A stretch of 22,091 nucleotides of DNA from Candidatus Micrarchaeia archaeon (GCA_038740245.1 JAVYLZ010000008.1:1-22091); one strand, 5' to 3'. Shown: positions 6,637-18,914, counted from the first letter of the stretch. Notes: a model not told the origin generated them from the letters alone. Numbers and translations are program-made.

Positions 6637-8577
6637 TTACCTGTGGCCTTCCTTGGCACGCTTGAGCCGCTGCATCTTTTCCTCAAGCTCGCGCTTGAGC
6701 TCGTCAACCTCGCTTTCCATAAGGCTGATTTCGTCGGCTGGCTTTGGCTGCTCTCTGGGCTGCTCGGGCTTGCCGACAACTACTACCTCCTTCTGTGGCT
6801 GCGGCTGCGTTTCTGGCCCGGCTGCGCTCTTTTCATCGGGATCCGGTAGCTTGCCAGCCAGGAATGTGTACACCACAAAGAACAGTGCGGCCGCAAGTAT
6901 TATGCCGCCCACTACCAGCCAAAGCGGCATCGTTGCGCGGATTGCATCAGCGGGCGATATCTCGCCTGCAAACGCCGCAAATATTGTGCCAAGAATGCTG
7001 CGCTCAGGGCCCTGCGGCTGGCTTTCATTGCCCTCCTGCCCGCCACCAACTATTGGGACTATTGGCTTGGGCTGGCTGCCGTTTGTCGGTGCGCCCGGCT
7101 TTTCAACGGCCTCAAACTCTGTATCGCCCACTATGGCATACTTAGCTGAGACAATCTTGTACTTGCCTGCAACGTGCGGCGTAAACTTGGCCTCACCCTT
7201 CCTGCTGGTCACAAGCGATACCTTTGTACCGTCCGGCCATACAAGGGTGAGCACTATGCCCTTCAGCGGGTCGCTGTTTGAGTCAAGCACAGTGACTGTA
7301 ACCTCCTCACCCACATATCCTTTTGTGGGCATGATTACCTTAACAGTGCTTGGTGCGCCCGTATTGCTTGTTGTGTTGCCGCCTGCAGGGGGCACAGTGG
7401 GTGTTGACGGGGCGGTTGTGGTTGGGCTGCTTGTGTTTGTGCTGGTGGATGTGCCAGGCTTCGGCTTATCCTTGTCCTTTTCCTCTTCCTGCTTCGTCAC
7501 TGAAACTGTAATTGTATCGTTAAGTGCCGGGTTGGGATTGTATACCGCGGTTATGTGTGCAGTGCACGCACTTGACGGCGCCGTAAACGTGCTGCCACTG
7601 ATGGCACCGCACGTGGTTGTATATGCAACGTCATTTGTTGCCCAGCGGTTTGAATATGCATCCTCAAGGTACGATGAGAGCGTTGCCTGCTGGCCAACCC
7701 TTACCGAATTGCTGCTTGCAGTAAGGTCAAGGCGCTTGGGCTCGCCGTGCACAATAGTGAGGGTGGCACTCCCAGTCACACCCAGGAATGTTGCACGGAC
7801 GGTCCTGCTGCCCGCATTTGCTGCAATCAGGGCCGGCAGGTAAAGTGCGCCTGCATTGCCGGTATCCCATGTGGCAGACATTGTTACGTCCTCATCATGG
7901 CCGTCATTGTAATGCGCAACCGCGCTGAGCGTTGCCTCATCGCCTGCCGTGAGTGTGGTATCTGATGCCTGCACCGCAACTGAGACGACTACCGGCATCG
8001 TGTTTATGGGTGACGAATCAAGAGCAGGACTAAGCTCTGCTGAATCCGCAGGCCCAAGCGAGACAGCCTGAGAGTTTGAGACATAAAACGGCGCCTCAAA
8101 CAAGATGTCATAATCGCCAGGAGAAAGCTGCATTGTGCCGGAGCACCCTGAAACAGCCTTAACAACTTCATTGCCGTTCTGTATCGCCTTTACAATGCAG
8201 CCGCTGATTTGCTGGCCGCTTGCATTTTTCACTGTGAATGTAACCTGCGCGTTTGGAACAACCAAAAGTGCACCCATGTTAAGTGTTTCAGATTCACCGA
8301 CAGTTGCAGTGAAATAGCCGTTGCTGTAGCCAGCACTAATTGTACGAATTGTATACGAACCGGATACGCTGTTTACTGTGAACGTGCCGGTTTCGCTGGA
8401 CTGCACTTGCGCTGCAAGCACGTTTTCCGAATCATAAACGTATATGCTTGCACCGGAGACAGGTGCACCGGACTGCATGTCAGTAACTGTTCCGGTTATT
8501 GAGCCGGCAAACACTGCACTGAAAAATGAAACTAGCACAAGCAGTGCCATTGCAATGGTGTTTTTTGCGGTCATCAT
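6637..8577 (-). CDS. Membrane-anchored surface protein with carboxypeptidase-regulatory-like and Ig-like (Big_2) domains
   Basis: Signal peptide (ALLVLVSFFSAVFA); GSITGTVTD..SGAPVSGA.I repeat type; Big_2-like LSAVAHYNDG..EDVT..ATW; T/S/P-rich linker; TM LWLVVGGIILAAALFFVVYTFL; cytoplasmic coiled-coil tail. AGGTGA RBS precedes ATG 8577/8574. Confidence 0.82.
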   Translation of the reverse strand: MMTAKNTIAMALLVLVSFFSAVFAGSITGTVTDMQSGAPVSGASIYVYDSENVLAAQVQSSETGTFTVNSVSGSYTIRTISAGYSNGYFTATVGESETLNMGALLVVPNAQVTFTVKNASGQQISGCIVKAIQNGNEVVKAVSGCSGTMQLSPGDYDILFEAPFYVSNSQAVSLGPADSAELSPALDSSPINTMPVVVSVAVQASDTTLTAGDEATLSAVAHYNDGHDEDVTMSATWDTGNAGALYLPALIAANAGSRTVRATFLGVTGSATLTIVHGEPKRLDLTASSNSVRVGQQATLSSYLEDAYSNRWATNDVAYTTTCGAISGSTFTAPSSACTAHITAVYNPNPALNDTITVSVTKQEEEKDKDKPKPGTSTSTNTSSPTTTAPSTPTVPPAGGNTTSNTGAPSTVKVIMPTKGYVGEEVTVTVLDSNSDPLKGIVLTLVWPDGTKVSLVTSRKGEAKFTPHVAGKYKIVSAKYAIVGDTEFEAVEKPGAPTNGSQPKPIVPIVGGGQEGNESQPQGPERSILGTIFAAFAGEISPADAIRATMPLWLVVGGIILAAALFFVVYTFLAGKLPDPDEKSAAGPETQPQPQKEVVVVGKPEQPREQPKPADEISLMESEVDELKRELEEKMQRLKRAKEGHR

Positions 8578-8579
8578 GA

Positions 8580-11500
8580 TCACCTGTAAAGGACGAAGTC
8601 CTTCTGGGCTTCTCCGGCAGTCGGCACGTAGAGCGTGTGCATCGCCCTCATGTAGTCGGGGTGCGTCACCTCAATCACATAAACGCCCGCAGGCACAACA
8701 AACTCGTATGCACCGGTTGCGGAAGTTGATGTTGTTGAGACAAGCACGCCGTTCCTGTAGGCCTTCACTGTTGCGCCTGCAACTGCACTGCCTGTCTGGT
8801 TGGTCACCGTGCCGTATATCCTTGCCATCTTGGTAAGCACATAGTTCTTGCTTACCGTCTGGCCCGCCTCCACCTGTACCCCGTAGTCACGGGAGGTAAG
8901 GTAGCTGGGATAAGAGACATGCACATCGTAGGTGTCTGCAGGCAGTGCAAGCGAGTATGCACCGTCAGGTCCAGCTACTGTCTCAAACAGCACCGCGCCC
9001 TGCTTAAGCACCTGCACAACTGCACCGCCAAGCGCTGCACCACTCGCGTTTGTCACGGTGCCTTCAAGAGTTCCTGCCTGCTCAATCGCAAGAACGGTTA
9101 TCACGGTGGTGTTAGTAATAGCGCCAACCGATGCGTTAACCGTGCACTGGCCCTCGGTTGCAGATGTAAACTGAGTCGTTGCAACACCGCTGGCGTTGGT
9201 GGCTGCGGTGCCGGTGCTGAGTGTTCCGCAGTTTGATGTAAAGGTTACCTGCACATTCTCAAGCGGCTGCATGTTTTGATTGAGGACTGTTGCACGCACA
9301 GTGCTCTGCCCGCCTGCAAATATCGTGCTAGGGACAGCGGACACAAGCACCTGTGCAGGAGCGCTCGGCTGCTGCACAGCAACAAACTGCCTTGATATTA
9401 CCGTCTGCGTAAGCTGGCCGTTCACAACCGCTTCAACCGTAAACGTGCCTGACAGGCCTGCAACATCAACCGTTGCATCGCATACCACTGCATTGCAGGT
9501 GGTGACGGTATTGCCGTTTACACGAACAGCAATTGAGGAAATGCCTGTTGCGTCTGAGGCCTGCACACGAACGCTGAACGGTTCACTGTGCTCGCTCATC
9601 TCGGCTGGTGTGGGGTCAACAAATGCTGCTTCGGGCGGCACGTTGTCCACAAGCATATCAACGGTGCGCTCCGCAGTGTAGCCGTGCGTATCCGTTGCGG
9701 TTATGAGCACCTGAAGCTGCCCGTCAGGATAGTTTGCAGTGTTGACTGCGCGGGTAAAGTGTGCATTTGCGTGCTCAACCTCCTCCCCGCCGTTTATGTA
9801 TGTCCTTGCGCCTGCATAGTGCGCATCGTACACCACCGCCTCAACGACAACCATGCCGCTGAAGTATGGCCCTTCAGTTGCGCTTGGCGAAATCACTGTT
9901 ATAACCGGGGGCTCATCATCATATCCCGTCAGAACGACATCAATCACCTGTGTTGACTTTGGCATGAGCGGGAATGATACCACTGTCGGGTCATAATTGT
10001 CTGCACTCACACTGAGCGTATACATTGCCTCAGCGGGGACCGGCACTGTTATCTGGTAGTGCCCTTCCGCATTGGTTGTTGCTGCTGCCTGCTCGGTACC
10101 GCCAAGTGAAAGCACAACAAGTGCGTGCTCCACAGGGCTGCCTGAGCTGTCGTGCACATGCCCTTCAACTACCGAGTACGGCACGAGCACGAAATTTACG
10201 TTGTAATCGTGGTTCTTGTGTATCACAACTTCATAGCCTGTCGGCCGGTACCCGCTTGCAAGCGCCGTAATTGTGTATGGCCCGTCAAGGTCAACCTCGC
10301 TTATCAGGTAGTTGCCGTTTTCATCTGCGATCGCCGAATACCCGGTGCCTTCAATCACAACCTGTGCGCCGGCCACGGGGTTCATCTGTGTGTCCGTGAC
10401 CGTCCCGAATACGGTTGCATTGGGCACATATACCATGAATGAATCTATGTCAGTTATGGTGGTGCCCTCAACAGTCATTGAGTACATTACTGCGCCTTCC
10501 TTATCTCCGATATTGATTGTGACCGTTGCAATACCGGACTCGTTAGTCACTGCCACCGGGTTAAGCGCGGTCACGTATGCATCGCCTGCAAGGTAATTGA
10601 ACACCACGTTCACATTTGGCACTGCGTTGCCGTTCTTGTCAGTAACCTTTGCGTATACCGATTGCGTGGTCTCAACCGGCATCATATTCTCTGAGTATGC
10701 GTCAATTGACATTGGCTGGCCCGGCACAACAGTTACCTGCGCGGACTCGCTTATGCCGTTGTATGAAACCGTAACGGTGTCCGGCCCTGCCAGTACCGGC
10801 GCAAAGTAAATGCCATCCTGCGTTATGGTGCCGCGCTCGGCGGACCATACAAGTGCGGGATTCTGTATCTGGACGCCGTACTTGTCATACACGGCTGCGT
10901 TGAACTTGAGCATCTGCTCTGGCTGCAGCTCAACGGAAACTGGCTCAAGCACGATGTTTGCCGCTTCACCCGTGCGGACCCTCACGATTGCACTGCCGTT
11001 AACAGTGTATATCACAGGGTCTATTACGGGAATGCAGAAACCAATGCTGCAGTCAAACTTGGTAGAGTATATAGTGTATAATGCTGATGCAACTATCTCT
11101 GCCTCACCCGGGAAGTTGGCCTTGACGACACCGTTGCTGTCCACGGTTGCCACTGTGGTGTTACGTGAGGACCATATAATCTTCTGGCCGGGCAGCTCGT
11201 TCATGTTTGCATCGTAAACACGCGCGACAAGTGCCACGCTGTCGCCCACATCCTCAACTGTTTCCTGCGGTGTTATTATAACCTGGGCGGGCATGCCTGC
11301 AACCACAGTAAAGTGCCTTTCATCAACGCTGTCCGCAGGGCAGAACTTGAGGTTGTTTGCATATACCTTAATGCTCGCGGGGCCGGATTTCAGTCCTGTT
11401 GGGAATGAAACGCGCGCTATGCCGTCACTCCCTGATGTAAACGTGTATTCCGTTGTCTTGCCCTCTGGAGAGGCATACTCAACGGATACACCTGCTGCCT

Positions 11501-12233
11501 TAGGATTGCCGAACTCGTCTGTAACATTAACGCTGAACGTTGCGTTTGAGCCGGCCGCATATGCCTGCTGCACCGACCCGATTATAGCGGACTGCGTGCA
11601 CATGCCCGGCTCAACTGTTATCTGTGCGGTAGCATCCCTGTCAAGGTAAACTGCGGTGAGCGTAACCTTGCCTGCCTTTGTGCCTGAGAACATGACCTCA
11701 TTGGCGCCAAGCCAGCCCGGCGTGGTGAGCGTGCCGAACGACGGGTCGGAAAGCGAGAATGAGGCCTTTATGTCCGCGGGGCTGCCGGCAGCATCAAGTG
11801 CGATGAGCCTGAACGACGTGCTGCGGCCAGCCTGCACGGTGGCCTGCTGCGGTGAGAGTGTGAACGATTTTATGTTTGAGGCACAGTATTCTGACGGCTC
11901 AAGCGTCACCTTTGCCTGCGCCGTGCCGGCTTTTACCGTATAAACGCCGCGCGGCTGTGCTGCGCCAAACTTGAACACGCACTTGCCTTTTGAGTCGGTC
12001 TTGCAGCCAAGCCCTGTGTCCACGCCGTTTGCCATATACACCTTAACCTGTATGCCCGGCGCATAAGAGACTGTTACGTCACAAGCGCGCGGCACAACTG
12101 GCGGTGTAACCTGCAGGGCAGGGTCCGCCTTTAGCGGCACGGCAACAGTGTCACCTGGTATTGTGACCACGAATGCCGAGACCGATGCAAACAGCAGGAG
12201 CATGCCTGCGAGTATTGCCATTTTTGTATCCAT
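8580..12233 (-). CDS. Large secreted Ig-repeat protein (Big_2/Big_1 invasin/intimin-type, Big_3-like and four carboxypeptidase-regulatory-like domains)
   Basis: Signal peptide; WSSRNTTVATVDSNGVVKA (Big_2); AKVTDKNGNAVPNVNVVF...TNESGIATVT and ATVLNQNMQPLENVQVTF...TNASGVATTQF (Big_1); repeated GTVT...G..V.GA.V units; no C-terminal TM; GGTGA RBS. Confidence 0.85.
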   Translation of the reverse strand: MDTKMAILAGMLLLFASVSAFVVTIPGDTVAVPLKADPALQVTPPVVPRACDVTVSYAPGIQVKVYMANGVDTGLGCKTDSKGKCVFKFGAAQPRGVYTVKAGTAQAKVTLEPSEYCASNIKSFTLSPQQATVQAGRSTSFRLIALDAAGSPADIKASFSLSDPSFGTLTTPGWLGANEVMFSGTKAGKVTLTAVYLDRDATAQITVEPGMCTQSAIIGSVQQAYAAGSNATFSVNVTDEFGNPKAAGVSVEYASPEGKTTEYTFTSGSDGIARVSFPTGLKSGPASIKVYANNLKFCPADSVDERHFTVVAGMPAQVIITPQETVEDVGDSVALVARVYDANMNELPGQKIIWSSRNTTVATVDSNGVVKANFPGEAEIVASALYTIYSTKFDCSIGFCIPVIDPVIYTVNGSAIVRVRTGEAANIVLEPVSVELQPEQMLKFNAAVYDKYGVQIQNPALVWSAERGTITQDGIYFAPVLAGPDTVTVSYNGISESAQVTVVPGQPMSIDAYSENMMPVETTQSVYAKVTDKNGNAVPNVNVVFNYLAGDAYVTALNPVAVTNESGIATVTINIGDKEGAVMYSMTVEGTTITDIDSFMVYVPNATVFGTVTDTQMNPVAGAQVVIEGTGYSAIADENGNYLISEVDLDGPYTITALASGYRPTGYEVVIHKNHDYNVNFVLVPYSVVEGHVHDSSGSPVEHALVVLSLGGTEQAAATTNAEGHYQITVPVPAEAMYTLSVSADNYDPTVVSFPLMPKSTQVIDVVLTGYDDEPPVITVISPSATEGPYFSGMVVVEAVVYDAHYAGARTYINGGEEVEHANAHFTRAVNTANYPDGQLQVLITATDTHGYTAERTVDMLVDNVPPEAAFVDPTPAEMSEHSEPFSVRVQASDATGISSIAVRVNGNTVTTCNAVVCDATVDVAGLSGTFTVEAVVNGQLTQTVISRQFVAVQQPSAPAQVLVSAVPSTIFAGGQSTVRATVLNQNMQPLENVQVTFTSNCGTLSTGTAATNASGVATTQFTSATEGQCTVNASVGAITNTTVITVLAIEQAGTLEGTVTNASGAALGGAVVQVLKQGAVLFETVAGPDGAYSLALPADTYDVHVSYPSYLTSRDYGVQVEAGQTVSKNYVLTKMARIYGTVTNQTGSAVAGATVKAYRNGVLVSTTSTSATGAYEFVVPAGVYVIEVTHPDYMRAMHTLYVPTAGEAQKDFVLYR

Positions 12234-12239
12234 CTTCGC

Positions 12240-14894
12240 TCACCACACAATTAATATTCCAAGCTCTGGGACAAGTGCCCAGTTATTGCCTACACTGCGG
12301 TATTCCGCACCAAGACGCAGCGTAAATACATCCTTCATGTTTACGGCCTTAACACTGCCGAACAGCAGGTAGCCGCTTTCAAACCCTTGCGAACTTGAAA
12401 TGCTGCCCATATAGGTTGCGCCGTCCCTCTCATATGTTCCAATGCCCGGCACAAACAGCTGGCTGTATTCCGAACCAAGTATTGCGCCGCCGCCAAAGTT
12501 CAGGTACTTCCAAGTAAGCGAGGCGCCAACCACTGCGGATGCGTTCCACGCCATATTGGGGCTCGCAGAGGCATACCTGCCGCCTGCACCTACAACAAGG
12601 TTGAGGTATGCCGGCTTGTCATACCACAGCGGAAGCTGCAGCAGCACACTGCCCTCGGTGCACTCAAACACTGAATTTCCGTCCTTCTTCTGCGAGTATA
12701 TGCCCGCAGAGCGCACTATCAGCGGGTACTTGCTGGCTGTATCCCATACATTTAATGAATATGACAGCGGCGCCCTCTCGGTAAACGTGCCGCTTACATT
12801 AAAGTTCATTACATCGCTTGTTACAAGGAACGTGCCGCCAACCATTGCATTCTCGCTTTTCCTGGTGCTCTTTGAAAGGTTAAGCAATGCGGCGATGCGC
12901 CAGTCCCTCCCGTCCTTGTCTTCCAAAAGCAGGCTTGGGCCAACACTCAATAATGCATTATGATTGTAGTACCCTTCAGTGTACTCGTGGCCGTACCCTT
13001 TGTATGCACCGCCCAGTGTAAAGCCTATTTTTGCAGGGTTAATATGAATATATACTGGGGCAGTTGCATCCCAGCCAAACAGCTGTTTACTTCCAATAGA
13101 TGATTGCGAGAGGTATCCTATCCCGCCAACTTCCAGTGCACCCTTAACTGCCTCCTTTTGGGTATCCTCGCGTGCGGGGTCAGGTGCAGCAACCGGTACG
13201 GCTTCAGTCTCAGCGTGTGCAATCAATATATCTGCAATCTCATCACGTTTGGACTCAAGACGGCCAACCGTATCAATAACTTTGTCTCTAAGGGCTTCTG
13301 GGTCGGTGCACCGGCGGCACTCATCTATCTTCTCAAGTATCTTAGCACCATCATTACCTGCAAGCGTAACCTTCTCATTGAACCTTTCAATTATCTTGTT
13401 GCCCATCTGCAAAAAGCCTTCCTTCGTGTTGGGCTCTTCACCGAAAGCGTCTATTACTATCTTTTCGGATTTTCCTTTGCCGCGGCTATACTGTGCAACC
13501 AGCTGGTTGATCTGCTCGTTAACCGCATTAATCTCGTTGTTTTGCGCTGCCTCAAATGAATCAACAAGCTCAAACACTTCTTTTGAAGTGGGGGCGTTTT
13601 CATCTGCAATCTTTTCATTGATTAGTGAGGAATACTCCTCCTTCTTCTGGATTACGTATACATCAAGTTGTGAAAGCTGGTCAAGCATATATGTAATTAC
13701 CATGCGGTCCCCCTCAGAGCTCTTATTATAGTCGTCAAGCTGCTTTTGTATCTGCTGCACCTCTTCAATCATTTGCTTGTGCAGCTTCTCTACACGCTCA
13801 AGCAGCTTGGGACCTTCTACAGAAACAAGGTCTCCGCGAAGTATTTCCTCAAGCGCAAAGTCAAGTTCTGAAATGCCGTTGCGCGTGCTGGCTTCAAGCC
13901 CCTCTATGCTCTTGGCAATCACTGCGAGATTGTCACCGGCCTTTTCCTTCTCTGCAAGGATCTGCTCAACACGCTCCTTGTTCGGAAGCTCTGCCACGCA
14001 TCCCTTGCATTCAGTCTTGTACTCTACTGCTGCGGGCTCAGTGCTCGCTTTTTGTGCATCAGCCTCCAGAGCGGCCTTCAGCTGTTCCTCGGGAACACGC
14101 TTCTCCTCAATTATCTCGGCAATGGTCTTCTCCTCTGGCGCACCGCTTAAGCCCTTGCGCATCTGCGCATACTCCTCATTAGACATTGCATAAACAGTTG
14201 TCTCCTGCACCTTTGGCGGCTTTGGCAGCTTGTGAATAACCATCTTGCCAGGCGGCTCAACAAACCGCTGCTCAGTGGCTATTGTGCCGTCCGCCATCTG
14301 ATAATATATGGGCGTATAATTCCTTTTCTGGTGTTCTGCCGCGGGTTTTGCCTTTTGTGCATCCTTGCCCTCCGTTGCGCTTGGTGCCTTACCCTTCGCA
14401 ACAGGGGCTGATTTCTGCTTCGGCTTGGGGTTCTTGAGGTTATACTGGTAATCGCACTCAAGCTGGGCCAAAATCTCATCAGAGACCTTAGGGAGCAGCT
14501 TAGGCGGCAGCCCATTCTTGCGTATGATTTCTGCGGATTTGGGGGTCACATATACCGCACGAAGGTCCTCGTATGAAAGCTTGCCTTTCTTATACTGCGC
14601 ATATGCGCGCTCAAGCTCATAATCAGTGCCTATTTTCACTTTCTTTTGGACACCTTCAAACTGGACCTCGCTTGTTGAGCACTTTTGCGGCCCCTGCTGT
14701 GCTGGCATCTCCTGCGCGGATGCGCCGGCGACGGTGCATGCCAACGCAAGTCCAAGCATTATCTTGTAAACGCCTGGCGGCAGCCTGAACCTGCGTTGCA
14801 CCTGCTCTTCGGGCGCGCTTAGTTTCAGCTGACTGTTATCACCGGAAACCTGTGCCTGCCGTGAGATTCCTTTAAGCATATATGAATTAACCAT
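12240..14894 (-). CDS. Hypothetical exported protein: extended signal-like N-terminus, coiled-coil middle, C-terminal beta-strand-rich (beta-barrel-like) domain
   Basis: Long ORF. Start placed at ATG 14894 (MVNSY..., ~884 aa) because a TATA-like element lies at 14938-14945. Hydrophobic IMLGLALACTVAGASA-QE begins near residue 45. E/K/Q-rich helical middle. Last ~300 aa consist of Gly/aromatic amphipathic strands ending in W. Confidence 0.75.
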   Translation of the reverse strand: MVNSYMLKGISRQAQVSGDNSQLKLSAPEEQVQRRFRLPPGVYKIMLGLALACTVAGASAQEMPAQQGPQKCSTSEVQFEGVQKKVKIGTDYELERAYAQYKKGKLSYEDLRAVYVTPKSAEIIRKNGLPPKLLPKVSDEILAQLECDYQYNLKNPKPKQKSAPVAKGKAPSATEGKDAQKAKPAAEHQKRNYTPIYYQMADGTIATEQRFVEPPGKMVIHKLPKPPKVQETTVYAMSNEEYAQMRKGLSGAPEEKTIAEIIEEKRVPEEQLKAALEADAQKASTEPAAVEYKTECKGCVAELPNKERVEQILAEKEKAGDNLAVIAKSIEGLEASTRNGISELDFALEEILRGDLVSVEGPKLLERVEKLHKQMIEEVQQIQKQLDDYNKSSEGDRMVITYMLDQLSQLDVYVIQKKEEYSSLINEKIADENAPTSKEVFELVDSFEAAQNNEINAVNEQINQLVAQYSRGKGKSEKIVIDAFGEEPNTKEGFLQMGNKIIERFNEKVTLAGNDGAKILEKIDECRRCTDPEALRDKVIDTVGRLESKRDEIADILIAHAETEAVPVAAPDPAREDTQKEAVKGALEVGGIGYLSQSSIGSKQLFGWDATAPVYIHINPAKIGFTLGGAYKGYGHEYTEGYYNHNALLSVGPSLLLEDKDGRDWRIAALLNLSKSTRKSENAMVGGTFLVTSDVMNFNVSGTFTERAPLSYSLNVWDTASKYPLIVRSAGIYSQKKDGNSVFECTEGSVLLQLPLWYDKPAYLNLVVGAGGRYASASPNMAWNASAVVGASLTWKYLNFGGGAILGSEYSQLFVPGIGTYERDGATYMGSISSSQGFESGYLLFGSVKAVNMKDVFTLRLGAEYRSVGNNWALVPELGILIVW

Positions 14895-14937
14895 AGTATA
14901 CCCCCAACGTTGGTAAGGGATTTTGAGTGTTCCGGGG

Positions 14938-14945
14938 TTTATATA
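14938..14945 (-). promoter_or_regulatory. Putative TATA box for the surface-protein operon
   Basis: TATATAAA on the minus strand ~44 nt upstream of ATG 14894, in the divergent intergenic region. Confidence 0.5.
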
Positions 14946-14988
14946 CATTTCTATTATGACATGTAGGCGGCGGAGCCAAAAAATGAGC

Positions 14989-14996
14989 ATATATAA
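14989..14996 (+). promoter_or_regulatory. TATA box for tRNA-Lys
   Basis: ATATATAA ending ~25 nt upstream of tRNA position 1, with an A-rich BRE-like stretch upstream. Confidence 0.65.
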
Positions 14997-15082
14997 GGAT
15001 ATGTGCCCATAATTGCCTTGCGGGCCCGTAGCTCAGCTTGGCTAGAGCGGCGGACTTTTAATCCGAAGGTCACGGGTTCAAA

Positions 15083-15277
15083 GCAGGGACCCAGCGGTCC
15101 AGCATGCGCTTTGCGCATGTGGCCTGCAAACATTCTGTTTGCACGGCCCCGCACCCCTTGCAACCAAGCAAGTGGGGGCGGAGCCCCCTTGGGCTGCCAA
15201 AAAATACCTCGCACATGTGGGGGTTTGGGCGGTGGCGGACTAAGGGGGCGGAGCCCCCTTGGGCTGCCATGTGAAAA
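15083..15277 (+). other. BHB-type tRNA intron, 195 nt, highly structured
   Basis: Canonical BHB: central helix TTCA(15077-80)/TGAA(15272-75), 3-nt bulges AAG(15081-83) and AAT(15276-78), flanked by the T stem and CA-g-GG/CC-a-TG. Cleavage after the second base of each bulge gives exactly the mature T-loop. Confidence 0.9.
15174..15269 (+). repeat. 26-nt perfect direct repeat inside the intron
   Basis: GGGGGCGGAGCCCCCTTGGGCTGCCA at 15174-15199 and 15244-15269; each copy contains the hairpin GGGGGC-GGA-GCCCCC. Confidence 0.95.
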
Positions 15278-15379
15278 TCCCGTCGGGCCCGTTTTTAATA
15301 AAAATTGCCTTCTTTTAAGGCAAATGTTGCGCTTCGGGCTGTTTAAATACTAGTTGCACAGGAGGAGATGCTAAAGGCA

Positions 15380-15387
15380 TTTATAAA
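15380..15387 (+). promoter_or_regulatory. TATA box for the pilin/VirB4-like operon
   Basis: TTTATAAA preceded by AAAGG, ~31 nt upstream of ATG 15419, which has a GGTGGTG RBS. Confidence 0.7.
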
Positions 15388-15418
15388 TTATACCGCTGAT
15401 TACATAAAAGGTGGTGTA

Positions 15419-15760
15419 ATGAATAGATTCGCGATTGTTGCACTGTTTGTGCTTACGTTCTCTGCAATGACCTATGCAGGAGTTGGCGAAACGCTTAATA
15501 ACCTCTGCTTCCAGGCGAGGGGTCTTATACCGATAGTTGCATTTGTCCTAATCGTGTTCGCAGGTCTTGTGTATGCCGCGGGGCAGGTGCTGGGTGCTGA
15601 GATGCGTTCCAGGACCAACGTGTGGGCGACAACCATGGTCATTGGCGCGATAATCGGCCTGATATTTACGTTCAGCGCACCTGCCATAATCAGCCTTGTG
15701 GCTGGGGCATTTGGGATGGATCTTGAGACCTACGAGTACACGTGTGAAACGCTGCTGTAG
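15419..15760 (+). CDS. VirB2/TrbC-like pilin (CedA1/TedC-like)
   Basis: 113 aa from ATG 15419. Signal peptide ending TYA, an amphipathic helix, then two hydrophobic helices (IPIVAFVLIVFAGLVYAAG; MVIGAIIGLIFTFSAPAII) joined by a short basic loop (EMRSR). First gene of an operon containing a VirB4-like ATPase. Confidence 0.7.
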   Translation: MNRFAIVALFVLTFSAMTYAGVGETLNNLCFQARGLIPIVAFVLIVFAGLVYAAGQVLGAEMRSRTNVWATTMVIGAIIGLIFTFSAPAIISLVAGAFGMDLETYEYTCETLL

Positions 15761-15769
15761 AGGGATGCG

Positions 15770-16531
15770 ATGGAGCTGAACGAGACGCTTGCGTACGGTG
15801 CGCTCGGAGCGGGCGGGGTATTCCTGCTGTTCGCCAGCCAGTTTGCCCCCATTGCCCTGCTTTCAATAATCTGTGCACTGCTCGCATACATGTTTTACAG
15901 GTGGGGCAACATCTACGTGCCATTCCTGGTATTCCAAAAAAGGGAAATACAGGTACCATACGCCTTTGAGATTTCGCCTGCAGAGGATGCTGTATTCAAG
16001 CAGGTTGGGGATGATTATATAGCAACAGTATTCCTCAATTTGGATATCTACGAAACGATGACCAACAAGAACCAAGATGAGATAAACGATTATGCGCATT
16101 ACTTTGAGCGCTCAATATCAAGCGTCAAGGACCCCATAAAAATATCTGCAATACTCTACGAGAGGGACATGGGGCGGTATGCTAAGGCAATTGAGGAGAG
16201 GAAAGCTGCGCTTGAGGATAAGATTGCTGCAGAGAGACAGAAGAAAAAGGCGGACCCGCGCACAATTGAAGTGCTTGAGCGCGAAAAGCTTATGTGGGAG
16301 CGGCGGCTTGAGGGGCTTTACAAGTCGTCTGAGCGGCCTCGTGCGGTTGAATACATAATTGCAACTTCCGGGTTTGGGCCGTCACGCGACGCCGCGCTCA
16401 GCGCTGCAAAAACAAGGGCACGGGAGATTAAGGCAACGTTTGCGGGCGGCATGTCCGTCAATGTTGATGAGCTTACACGGAACAGAATGAGGTCCTGCTT
16501 TGAGTGGGAATTCCTTTCCCCAGAATGGTGA
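15770..16531 (+). CDS. Membrane protein, two N-terminal TMs plus cytoplasmic alpha/beta domain with coiled-coil insert (VirB3/VirB4-N-terminal-like)
   Basis: 253 aa; hydrophobic hairpin at residues ~8-45; clearly paralogous to the next gene; located between the pilin and the ATPase. Confidence 0.6.
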   Translation: MELNETLAYGALGAGGVFLLFASQFAPIALLSIICALLAYMFYRWGNIYVPFLVFQKREIQVPYAFEISPAEDAVFKQVGDDYIATVFLNLDIYETMTNKNQDEINDYAHYFERSISSVKDPIKISAILYERDMGRYAKAIEERKAALEDKIAAERQKKKADPRTIEVLEREKLMWERRLEGLYKSSERPRAVEYIIATSGFGPSRDAALSAAKTRAREIKATFAGGMSVNVDELTRNRMRSCFEWEFLSPEW

Positions 16532-16535
16532 GATT

Positions 16536-17336
16536 GTGCCAAGGATACCCAAGCTGTATATGATTGCCGGCGTGGTCTTTGTAACAGCAATTGCGCTGTT
16601 TATACTGTTCCAGGCAGGAATAGTGATATTTGCAATAGGCCTGCTTCTTGCGCTGCTGGTTGGTGCATTCATTTACTTCGGGCATTTCATCACGCCGCTC
16701 ATAACACGCATAGCTGGCATAACCTACCGAAAAGGTGAGTATATTTTCCCGCCGGGGCAGGATGTGATAGTGAAAAAGAGCGGGGATAAGTATATGGCCG
16801 CCAAATTCATGCTGGTAAACATACCAGAGCGCGAGGAGGTTTCAGGAAAGCGCGAGGAGCGGTCCGAAGTGTACCTGAAGGACTTTGAGGCCGCAGTGAG
16901 CGCGATACACGTGCCTGTGAAATTCAATATGCTGCTCGCGACCAAGGACATAAGCGCCTACAGGGAAAGCATACAGTCCAAGGTATACGAGTACGGACTC
17001 AGGATAAAGCGTGAGATGGAAAAGGCCGAGCCCGACGTGATAAAGCTTGACAAGTGGCAGAAGGAGAAGGAGTTTAACGAGAACCTTCTCAAGCGGCTTG
17101 CAAGCGGCGTGAAGCCGATGGCCTGCGTGATGTATGTTATGACATTGGCCAAGGGCATAACGCAAAAGGAAGCCATTGACAAGGTAAAGGCCAATGCCAA
17201 GGAGATCAAGGCGGTCATCTCAAACAACCTCAACGCCGAGGTAACCGACCTTATTGGCGAGGATGCAGAGCTCTGCCTTGAGTGGGAGCGTGCGCTGCCC
17301 ACAAGCTATGAAGAGCTTGTTGCAGCTACGGATTAG
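16536..17336 (+). CDS. Membrane protein, paralog of the upstream gene (VirB3/VirB4-N-terminal-like)
   Basis: GTG 16536 follows a GGTGA RBS and is preferred over TTG 16500. Two TMs; aligns with the upstream protein through to the shared C.EWE motif. Confidence 0.6.
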   Translation: MPRIPKLYMIAGVVFVTAIALFILFQAGIVIFAIGLLLALLVGAFIYFGHFITPLITRIAGITYRKGEYIFPPGQDVIVKKSGDKYMAAKFMLVNIPEREEVSGKREERSEVYLKDFEAAVSAIHVPVKFNMLLATKDISAYRESIQSKVYEYGLRIKREMEKAEPDVIKLDKWQKEKEFNENLLKRLASGVKPMACVMYVMTLAKGITQKEAIDKVKANAKEIKAVISNNLNAEVTDLIGEDAELCLEWERALPTSYEELVAATD

Positions 17337-17345
17337 GTGTATGCG

Positions 17346-18914
17346 ATGGGAGTGATAACCGTAAAGAACAGGAAGCTATACAGCTCTGATGTGGCGTCGC
17401 GCGGCATTGTCAGCAGGCCGCCAGAGCCGCCTGCCGAGCTCATAACCGGCGATCCAACAAACTCCATCTATATCGGCAGGACTGCGGTGTTCAACGAGCC
17501 GTTCCACTGGAGCTATGAGAATGTTACAAACCCCCACATCGCAGTGGTTGGTATCTCAGGTGCAGGCAAGTCATACTTCATCAAGACATTTCTCACACGC
17601 GCATCTTTCGTGTGGGGCACAAACGCGCTCATAATTGACTGGGCCGGCGAATATAAGGAATGGGTAAAGCAGGCCGGCGGCAAGGTGCTCGCGCTCGGGA
17701 AGGGGTCATACCTGAACCTGCTTGACCTTGCGGGCATGCGGCCGCTTGACCGCATAAAGCAGATAAGCAGGAGCCTTGAGATACTTACGGACATCGGCTC
17801 ATACCCTGAGCAGAAGCGGCTTACCGAGGAAGCGATCGAGCGCGCATATGTTGACAAGGGGTTCAAGCTTTCCGTAAAGGACCAGAAGGATGCGCTTGGC
17901 AACCCGCTTACTCCCCCCACACTCAAGGACGTTGTGCGGGTGCTTGAGGACAAGCTTGCTTCCGGCACCTATGAGTTCCCAGTAGAGCTTGAAAACGCAA
18001 TATACAGGCTCAAGAAATTCACGCGCGAGGGTGAGGATTTCTTTGCCGAGCAGAGCACTATAAAGCTTAACGAGCTCATTTCATCCGGCCTTGTGGGGCT
18101 TGACTTATCGGGCCTGCCTGATGAGACGATGCGTGCGCTTGCTGCGCTGTCAATACTCCAGTTCATCAAGGAAAAAATGCGCGCCTCGGGCTGGGAAAAA
18201 CAGAAGGGCATCAAGCTCATCATAGTGCTTGATGAGGCATGGAAGATTGCAAAGGACGATAACGGCGATCCGGTTATGATTGTAAGGGAAGGACGCAAGT
18301 ACAACTTTGCGCTGCTTGTCGCATCGCAAAACCCCACGGACATAAGCGAGGCGATATTCTCAAATGTCGGCACGACGTTTATACTCAGGGTCAAGTTTGA
18401 GAAGTTCCTTGACTATTTGCAGAACACGCTGAACTTCAGCGATTACATGCGGCAACAGATTGCGCGCCTTGGGGTTGGGCAGGCCGCAGTGAACATGGCG
18501 CTCCAGACAAGCACACCGTACCCCGAGACGTTCCTGCTCTCCAAAATAGAAGGTGAGGAGCCGGTGGTTGAATACTTCCTGGACGTGCAGCCAAAATTGA
18601 TTGGTGGAGAGGATATTGTGGGCAAAACATTCTCGTTTGAAAGGAATGAGCTTCGCAAGAAGCTCCGGCTGTTTGGGCTGAATGACGAAAAGGTGGAGGA
18701 GATAACCTCAACATTTGACAAGCAGAACAGGCATATGGACATCGTTGACTTCGTGATTATGCTTGAACGTTACGGCATAGACCGCAACGACATTACGGGT
18801 TACCTGAAGGACTTGGGTGTGGAGGACAGCGTGATAATCAACATACTTTCAGAAGCGGATTATAAGAAACAGGGCATCCGTGGCGAGAGCACGGAGGTTG
18901 AGCTGAATGATTAA
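17346..18914 (+). CDS. VirB4/HerA-family P-loop ATPase (DUF87-like) with an extra C-terminal helical domain
   Basis: NPHIAVVGISGAGKS Walker A, IIDWAGEY, LNLLDL, PTL.D, IIVLDEAW Walker B, REGRKYN arginine finger and ASQ motif. ATG 17346 follows an AGGTG RBS. Confidence 0.9.
   Translation: MGVITVKNRKLYSSDVASRGIVSRPPEPPAELITGDPTNSIYIGRTAVFNEPFHWSYENVTNPHIAVVGISGAGKSYFIKTFLTRASFVWGTNALIIDWAGEYKEWVKQAGGKVLALGKGSYLNLLDLAGMRPLDRIKQISRSLEILTDIGSYPEQKRLTEEAIERAYVDKGFKLSVKDQKDALGNPLTPPTLKDVVRVLEDKLASGTYEFPVELENAIYRLKKFTREGEDFFAEQSTIKLNELISSGLVGLDLSGLPDETMRALAALSILQFIKEKMRASGWEKQKGIKLIIVLDEAWKIAKDDNGDPVMIVREGRKYNFALLVASQNPTDISEAIFSNVGTTFILRVKFEKFLDYLQNTLNFSDYMRQQIARLGVGQAAVNMALQTSTPYPETFLLSKIEGEEPVVEYFLDVQPKLIGGEDIVGKTFSFERNELRKKLRLFGLNDEKVEEITSTFDKQNRHMDIVDFVIMLERYGIDRNDITGYLKDLGVEDSVIINILSEADYKKQGIRGESTEVELND

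Follow-up and report, generated by a model that had tools for sequence, protein, structure and literature searches.

A predicted 16-stranded beta-barrel in Micrarchaeota that may anchor an Ig-repeat tether in a second bilayer

Transmembrane beta-barrels of this class are classic hallmarks of outer membranes, those of bacteria, mitochondria, and plastids, and they require Omp85. In this study, we analyzed a 22,091-nucleotide stretch of DNA (the window) from a Micrarchaeota archaeon, a tiny symbiont (Candidatus Micrarchaeia archaeon, GCA_038740245.1 JAVYLZ010000008.1:1-22091), and within it a minus-strand gene for an exported protein with a barrel-like C-terminal domain. The last 301 residues of this barrel protein and its stop codon occupy positions 12240..13145. 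The domain is predicted to form a 16-stranded barrel that is very probably closed and probably sits in a membrane. Our favored reading, to which we give a probability of about 0.45, is that the membrane-inserted barrel forms one end of a tether or portal built from three proteins, the other two being the immunoglobulin-like (Ig) products of the genes that follow it (genes 2 and 3). This structure would link the cytoplasmic membrane of the symbiont to a second bilayer at the cell surface, with the barrel at the far end.

The barrel domain alone was folded with AlphaFold2 from a shallow alignment of 9 sequences. The model had 16 antiparallel strands and no helix (predicted local distance difference test [pLDDT], 85.2; predicted template modeling [TM] score, 0.80), and the pLDDT of all five models lay between 82.8 and 85.2. 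Foldseek returned 73 chains at E <= 0.001, those shown being outer-membrane barrels, with a best TM-score of 0.47 to PgaA. A second, Foldseek-independent structure search covered 48,161 chains and listed 50 matches. PgaA ranked first (Z 12.5; root-mean-square deviation [rmsd], 4.9; 240 residues aligned), followed by CymA (Z 11.0), OmpT (10.8), BrkA (10.5), and, at ranks 5 and 6, BcsC (10.3) and PelB (10.2). Ranks 1 to 21 were all transmembrane barrels, one of them designed, and the first non-barrel was the single-layer sheet of OspA at rank 22 (Z 8.7); a further search gave similar results. An earlier note, written from the sequence alone, had proposed an outer-membrane-like barrel here; the model and both searches support this fold, and neither a sandwich nor a propeller, two of the folds it named as counter-evidence, came ahead of outer-membrane barrels among the 50 listed matches. 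The whole-barrel alignment covered PgaA residues 517-807, and small barrels aligned from first to last strand over model residues 1-301 (for 6x9z, 103 residues at rmsd 2.7). This start-to-end alignment implies that strands 1 and 16 would adjoin in the model, and the predicted barrel is very probably closed. Neighbors in the ESM Atlas at 0.91-0.92 included the OmpG, CymA, Tsx, and KdgM families.

All nine peptides quoted in the earlier note, as well as the terminal Trp, are found when 12243-13145 is translated from the minus strand. In the family alignment, one face of the strands was 77% hydrophobic and 1% charged, and the other 26% hydrophobic, 18% Gly, and 17% charged. The hydrophobic contrast between the faces was 0.52, compared with 0.34 +/- 0.04 in within-strand shuffles, and none of 2000 shuffles reached 0.52, so the strands alternate above chance. 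Conserved aromatic columns lie at the turn end (74, 133/134, 175/180, 212/214, and 301), and a second conserved band lies 7-9 residues along the strands (11, 48, 121, 259, and 282). These two bands are placed as aromatic girdles would be. On the polar face, the invariant polar residues Q170, N182, S209, T211, and N216 lie close to the end with the short turns, next to an S-x-Y-P turn that is itself invariant, and could form a conserved site in the mouth of the lumen. Bacterial barrels carry a C-terminal beta-signal for BAM with the consensus polar-x-G-x-x-hydrophobic-x-aromatic (PMC10945584). The last eight residues of the window protein, ELGILIVW, fit this consensus fully. Across the family, 6 of 10 sequences show the full pattern, or 5 when Gly at -8 is excluded from the polar residues, and 9 of 10 end in hydrophobic-x-Trp. 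Overall, the domain is probably inserted in a membrane.

The domain forms the 3' end of a minus-strand open reading frame at 12240-14990. Two sites lie upstream of the ATG at 14894, namely a TATATAAA box at 14938-14945 and GGGGGT at 14900-14905, and both are kept in the orthologue from genome G006. The ATG at 14894 is therefore the likely true start, which most likely gives a predicted protein of 884 residues with the following layout.

12240..13145, minus strand: predicted 16-stranded antiparallel beta-barrel, last 301 residues and stop codon (AlphaFold2, structure search, face analysis)
12243..12266, minus strand: beta-signal-like C-terminal octapeptide ELGILIVW (consensus match)
13146..13202, minus strand: short linker of Ala, Pro, and charged residues before the barrel (translation, composition)
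13203..13985, minus strand: helical, Glu/Lys-rich stalk of about 260 residues, unconserved across the family (heptad scan, homologues, Pfam)
13986..14420, minus strand: low-complexity region rich in Lys, Glu, and Pro (composition)
14421..14681, minus strand: small and probably helical N-terminal domain with family-wide conservation (alignment of 8 sequences)
14715..14759, minus strand: putative signal-peptide hydrophobic core and A-S-A cleavage site (by eye)
14760..14894, minus strand: 45-residue N-terminal extension, likely start ATG 14894 (TATA/ribosome-binding-like site, leader alignment)
14900..14945, minus strand: TATA box of archaeal type (14938-14945) and, at 14900-14905, ribosome-binding-like GGGGGT site, kept in G006

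A scan for sigma-70 promoters and terminators gave only chance-level results. The extension of about 44 residues before the signal-like segment, pointed out in the earlier note, is real: besides the retained promoter-like sites, an extension of 40-52 residues was present in all 11 family sequences examined. Each of the 11 also had an export signal with a hydrophobic core and a small-residue cleavage motif; core and A-S-A site of the window protein were judged by eye. A profile of the leader found no second significant carrier in the genome itself (G000), the best being an exported protein discussed below (C35, E 0.33). The small N-terminal domain showed a ratio of nonsynonymous to synonymous substitution rates (dN/dS) of 0.16 against G006 and had no match in Pfam or NCBIfam scans. 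The coiled-coil stalk described earlier stood only in part. The segment is helical, but the heptad scan found it interrupted by Pro/Gly turns, and a stalk of such length occurs only in the window protein and in G006. Other family members have ankyrin repeats and a coiled coil, or just charged low-complexity linkers, in this position; the ankyrin repeats occur in the exported stalk of two members (L027:8891-11392, minus strand; L029:11347-13548, plus strand).

We asked how widely the barrel domain is distributed. It was matched in 8 of 9 genomes of one Micrarchaeota order, and a wider sample, 401 genomes from across the phylum, yielded 6 matches, every one of them in this single family. A profile search of 1.84 billion representatives recovered 9 proteins, whose 4 named clusters all belong to Ca. 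Micrarchaeota or Micrarchaeia. The family is limited to one order, and between genera the identity is 22-31%. Against G006, the barrel had dN 0.31, dS 1.36, and dN/dS 0.23, and the family is under purifying selection. The GC content at third codon positions (GC3) of the gene was inside the range of the genome (13th percentile of 225 open reading frames). By these sequence measures the gene is native and conserved. An artefact or contaminant was ruled out by the same gene order in 7 other genomes, the Micrarchaeota homologues, GC3, and the dN/dS of 0.23; a recent transfer from bacteria was ruled out because no bacterial homologue was among the 9 hits in 1.84 billion representatives. Nothing in Pfam or NCBIfam came near the cut-off for the barrel. 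An Ig-domain hit (9ncf, E 1.6e-4) was discarded, as it was gone when the family profile was used.

The barrel gene heads an operon of three genes, the other two encoding Ig proteins.

8580..12233, minus strand: gene 2, 1217-residue secreted repeat protein with Big_1, Big_2, Invasin_D3, and CarboxypepD_reg domains (Pfam, synteny)
6637..8583, minus strand: gene 3, 648-residue CarboxypepD_reg/Ig protein with a C-terminal hydrophobic anchor and a cytoplasmic tail (Pfam, synteny)

Gene 2 starts 6 bp past the barrel stop and its product lacks a C-terminal membrane anchor; gene 3 overlaps the stop of gene 2. The barrel gene lies directly upstream of the Ig gene (gene 2) in 8 of 8 orthologous loci, and gene 3 comes next in each of the 6 loci that extend far enough. 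The neighbor upstream of the barrel gene varies. N-glycosylation sequons are in excess in gene 2 (174 versus 111 expected in 7 orthologues; observed/expected, 1.57; z, 6.8), which would suit a protein exposed at the surface of the archaeon itself. The barrel protein showed no such enrichment, but neither did the S-layer fragment nor gene 3, so sequons do not discriminate. After its signal peptide, the gene 2 product has a short conserved strand, F-V-V-x-I-x-G-D, followed by a linker of variable length, which resembles a donor or docking peptide (12113-12173, minus strand).

To survey the operon slot in other families, we fetched 8 regions around weaker Ig matches, 5 of which were cut short or otherwise arranged. 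In 3 of the 8 (G046, G122, and G052), the slot of the barrel gene holds a gene for an exported, partly beta-rich protein whose leader is long. Those of G046 and G122 end in Phe or Trp; in that of G052 the beta-rich part is N-terminal. A search for relatives of the G046 slot domain found none.

L063:10904-13081, minus strand; L064:5158-7494, minus strand; L065:4945-6681, plus strand: slot proteins of other families, orphan, exported, and beta-rich

On the other side of the barrel operon and divergent from it, the window carries a gene cluster (15368-18914, plus strand) for a VirB2/TrbC-like pilin, a pair of membrane proteins that are paralogues of each other, and a VirB4/CedB-like ATPase. This cluster adjoins the operon in the 7 loci of relatives that reach that side. 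Between the two lies a tRNA-Lys(UUU) gene (15022-15292, plus strand) with an insert of about 195 nucleotides in the T-loop region and a direct repeat inside the insert; ARAGORN missed this split gene, and Rfam recognizes its 5' part only.

We compared the barrel protein with known systems. The best fold matches were the exopolysaccharide export proteins PgaA, BcsC, and PelB (PDB 4y25, 6tzk/9b8h, and 9h80; Z 12.5, 10.3, and 10.2), whose barrels are 16-stranded and which likewise carry the C-terminal barrel behind a long helical N-terminal part. They differ in that identity is 6-10%, the present host is an archaeon, Pfam scans gave no TPR match in the window protein or 8 homologues, and no polysaccharide synthase was among the 15 window proteins scanned. 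OmpM/SlpA proteins (Veillonella OmpM1, 8bys; Foldseek E 1.1e-4) share a small N-terminal domain, a stalk, and a C-terminal porin-like barrel, but the TM-score was just 0.21, no SLH domain matched at E 0.1, and the stalk is unconserved here. Type Va autotransporters (BrkA 3qq2, AIDA-I 4mee, and EspP; Z 9.8-10.5) share an extended signal peptide, a passenger-like N-terminal part, and a C-terminal barrel ending in an aromatic residue. They have 12 strands and not 16, fit at rmsd 6.5-6.8, and no Autotransporter Pfam match was found in 9 of 9 family members and no ESPR match; the linker before the barrel of the window protein is of Pro, Ala, and charged residues. With 16 strands the protein is therefore not an autotransporter, and the likeness drawn in the earlier note fails on this point.

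Intimin and invasin (type Ve) couple a barrel to Big_1/Invasin_D3 Ig repeats, and in two-partner secretion (type Vb) the barrel gene adjoins the gene for a large secreted protein. Here, in contrast to both, barrel and Ig repeats are separate proteins with their own signal peptides, and there is no POTRA domain. TamA and CdiB appeared in the structure search at Z 8.0-8.1, but unlike Omp85/TpsB proteins the window protein had no POTRA match and was not among the carriers of their loop-6 motif VRGF/Y. PopA of Bdellovibrio (PDB 9gf0) matched with Z 9.8 over 238 aligned residues; it belongs to another phylum and showed no sequence similarity in a PDB profile search. One possible distant PopA relative is mentioned for Ca. 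Altiarchaeales (PMC12228718), the only archaeal barrel precedent that we found in print, as far as the accessible text goes. Ihomp1 of Ignicoccus hospitalis is also a pore protein of an archaeal outer membrane, but is alpha-helical and explicitly described as no beta-barrel (PMC3422733). Our literature search, which did not cover subscription journals, found no description of beta-barrels in Micrarchaeota, and the accessible part of PMC12352652 added nothing on DPANN. Overall, the domain would resemble an outer-membrane barrel in its working but fits no filed family, as TPR, SLH, and POTRA domains were not found.

Other proteins of this 0.69-Mb genome may be barrels as well. C35 (L017:3621-4319, plus strand) is a 233-residue exported protein with a long leader and the beta-signal-like end YIGLTVEF; it scores 0.96 to outer-membrane-protein clusters in the ESM Atlas and has an orthologue in G006 only. 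C36 (L019:1340-5623, plus strand; 1428 residues) and C11 (L018:7-4623, minus strand; 1539 residues) are helical in their N-terminal halves and finish with a beta-rich stretch of about 600-800 residues. Homologues of C36 end in beta-signal-like strands; the AlphaFold model of C36 reached a pLDDT of only 39.7, and homology between the barrel and this large family was not detected. A genome-wide barrel score was trained on the barrel family itself and gives high ranks to helical membrane proteins and Ig proteins too; its hits are therefore leads only. C11 carries a weak PG_binding_1 motif, and directly downstream of its G006 orthologue lies a gene for a 499-residue protein with a Gly-rich, amphipathic beta stretch (L079:3853-5349, plus strand). 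Lys/Glu-rich proteins with no evident signal peptide and with PG_binding_1 over the cut-off are encoded at L090-L093 (G008, G002, G000:C32, and G006), that of G002 directly upstream of a C36 homologue.

Double membranes have been reported for ARMAN cells (PMC4243693) and were later reinterpreted as an S-layer in M. harzensis (10.1101/2021.04.28.441871) and in ARM-1 (10.1101/2024.05.20.594898). Both belong to other lineages, and the envelope of the barrel-bearing order is therefore unsettled by them.

We suggest that the barrel protein would be exported by Sec, slowed by its long leader, as proposed for the extended signal peptides of autotransporters (PMC8151025); the likeness of the leaders is an analogy, with no ESPR Pfam match in the barrel protein. 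The barrel would then close and insert, with the N-terminal domain and the variable stalk on the short-turn side. Both termini would lie on this side, and it would be turned toward the archaeon in either case, be the bilayer an outer layer of the archaeon or a membrane of the host. Gene 3 would be anchored in the cytoplasmic membrane and gene 2 would form a glycosylated Ig rod, whose far end the barrel would hold; the barrel may also pass solutes. We consider it slightly more likely that the second bilayer is a host membrane at a site of host contact than an outer membrane of the archaeon, because an S-layer gene is present, no insertase was found, and the family diverges fast and within one lineage. 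Tentatively, and with a little less assurance than for the tether itself, we propose that Micrarchaeota of this order, and probably others, build bacterial-type barrels without Omp85, one of which plugs an Ig-repeat tether into a second bilayer.

Several observations weigh against the tether. Omp85 (PF01103), which the earlier note had named as a marker to look for, was found in none of 9 genomes of the order and none of 301 of the phylum, while 7 diderm controls were positive; G000 is 81% complete, and a highly divergent insertase could escape PF01103. POTRA was over the cut-off in 0 of 5 genomes, and an S-layer protein, which speaks against a simple outer membrane, was over the Pfam cut-off in 4 of 5, including G000. 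The neighboring Ig protein had a hydrophobic contrast of 0.57 versus 0.585 for the barrel, with its 16 best windows freely chosen; since this control alternates nearly as strongly, alternation is not diagnostic alone. That the hydrophobic face points outward is inferred from the sequence pattern. The best structural match was modest (rmsd 4.9, Foldseek TM-score 0.47, 10% identity), and the ESM Atlas recognition score of 1514 was below the level of strong hits, which makes its neighbors weak evidence. Synteny in the family extends to the wider region, which makes gene order weak as an argument for a complex. One barrel paralogue, in G005, sits outside the operon; G004 (84% complete) had no match even with the family profile; and no homology was detected between the barrel and the slot protein of either G046 or G122 (hhalign probability 0.2-0.3%).

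Alternatively, the protein could be a stand-alone porin or an OmpM-like tether in a true outer membrane of the order, assembled by an unknown machine other than Omp85. Several barrel-like exported proteins in one small genome, the leader-stalk-barrel layout shared with OmpM (PMC10628300), and the double membranes reported for ARMAN cells (PMC4243693) would be consistent with this. We consider it unlikely, given the S-layer gene in 4 of 5 genomes, the S-layers of cultured Micrarchaeota (10.1101/2021.04.28.441871, 10.1101/2024.05.20.594898), and the lack of an SLH match in Pfam scans; moreover, restriction to one order with 22-31% identity between genera is unlike a housekeeping envelope protein.

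Unless a plug is present, the lumen of a 16-stranded barrel is too wide to hold a hydrophobic core. This argues against a large soluble or surface-associated mimic of outer-membrane proteins, either a barrel or a curved sheet, which might bind a ligand or sit in the S-layer. The alternation of the Ig control, the OspA sheet at Z 8.7 and rank 22, the absence of a detected insertase, and the shallow alignment of 9 sequences fit such a fold. Relative to the Ig control, though, the barrel is richer in Gly on the polar face (0.17 versus 0.09) and in aromatic residues on the hydrophobic face (0.21 versus 0.12), and it has two aromatic bands. Hence, we regard a non-membrane fold as quite unlikely.

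The beta-signal, retained without an Omp85 of its own, would make sense if the precursor were delivered to a diderm bacterial host or prey, whose Sec and BAM machineries would recognize both the signal peptide and the beta-signal and insert the barrel into the host outer membrane. PG_binding_1 over the cut-off in 4 of 5 family genomes, once beside the large barrel-like gene of G002, its weak copy on the C11 protein, and the divergent pilin and VirB4/CedB-like ATPase cluster could be read in the same way. However, the hosts described in the two studies of cultured Micrarchaeota are archaea (10.1101/2021.04.28.441871, 10.1101/2024.05.20.594898), PG_binding_1 also matches Haloferax and Methanosarcina controls at a loose threshold, and barrel closure alone could explain the terminal aromatic strand. 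The delivery route is purely hypothetical, and the pilin/ATPase cluster may be a mere genomic neighbor; we find this scenario very unlikely. A docking ring or plugged channel that entered the archaeon's own single membrane from the outside would need no second membrane and recalls the barrel-shaped, 21-nm-wide docking platform for host nanotubes in the ARM-1 envelope (10.1101/2024.05.20.594898), but it is highly improbable, as ion gradients would be lost through an open 16-strand pore, the protein has no evident plug domain, and the size disagrees with the ARM-1 structure.

If the barrel does hold the far end of an Ig-repeat tether in a second bilayer, it would mean either that these archaea have an unrecognized outer membrane with a new barrel insertase or that a symbiont places barrels of its own in the membrane of its host, possibly by borrowing the BAM machinery of a bacterial host. 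The 301-residue domain is small enough to express and refold, which makes the question approachable without culturing the organism. A native archaeal barrel family without Omp85 bears on the envelope of Micrarchaeota and on how DPANN archaea attach to, and take up material from, their hosts.

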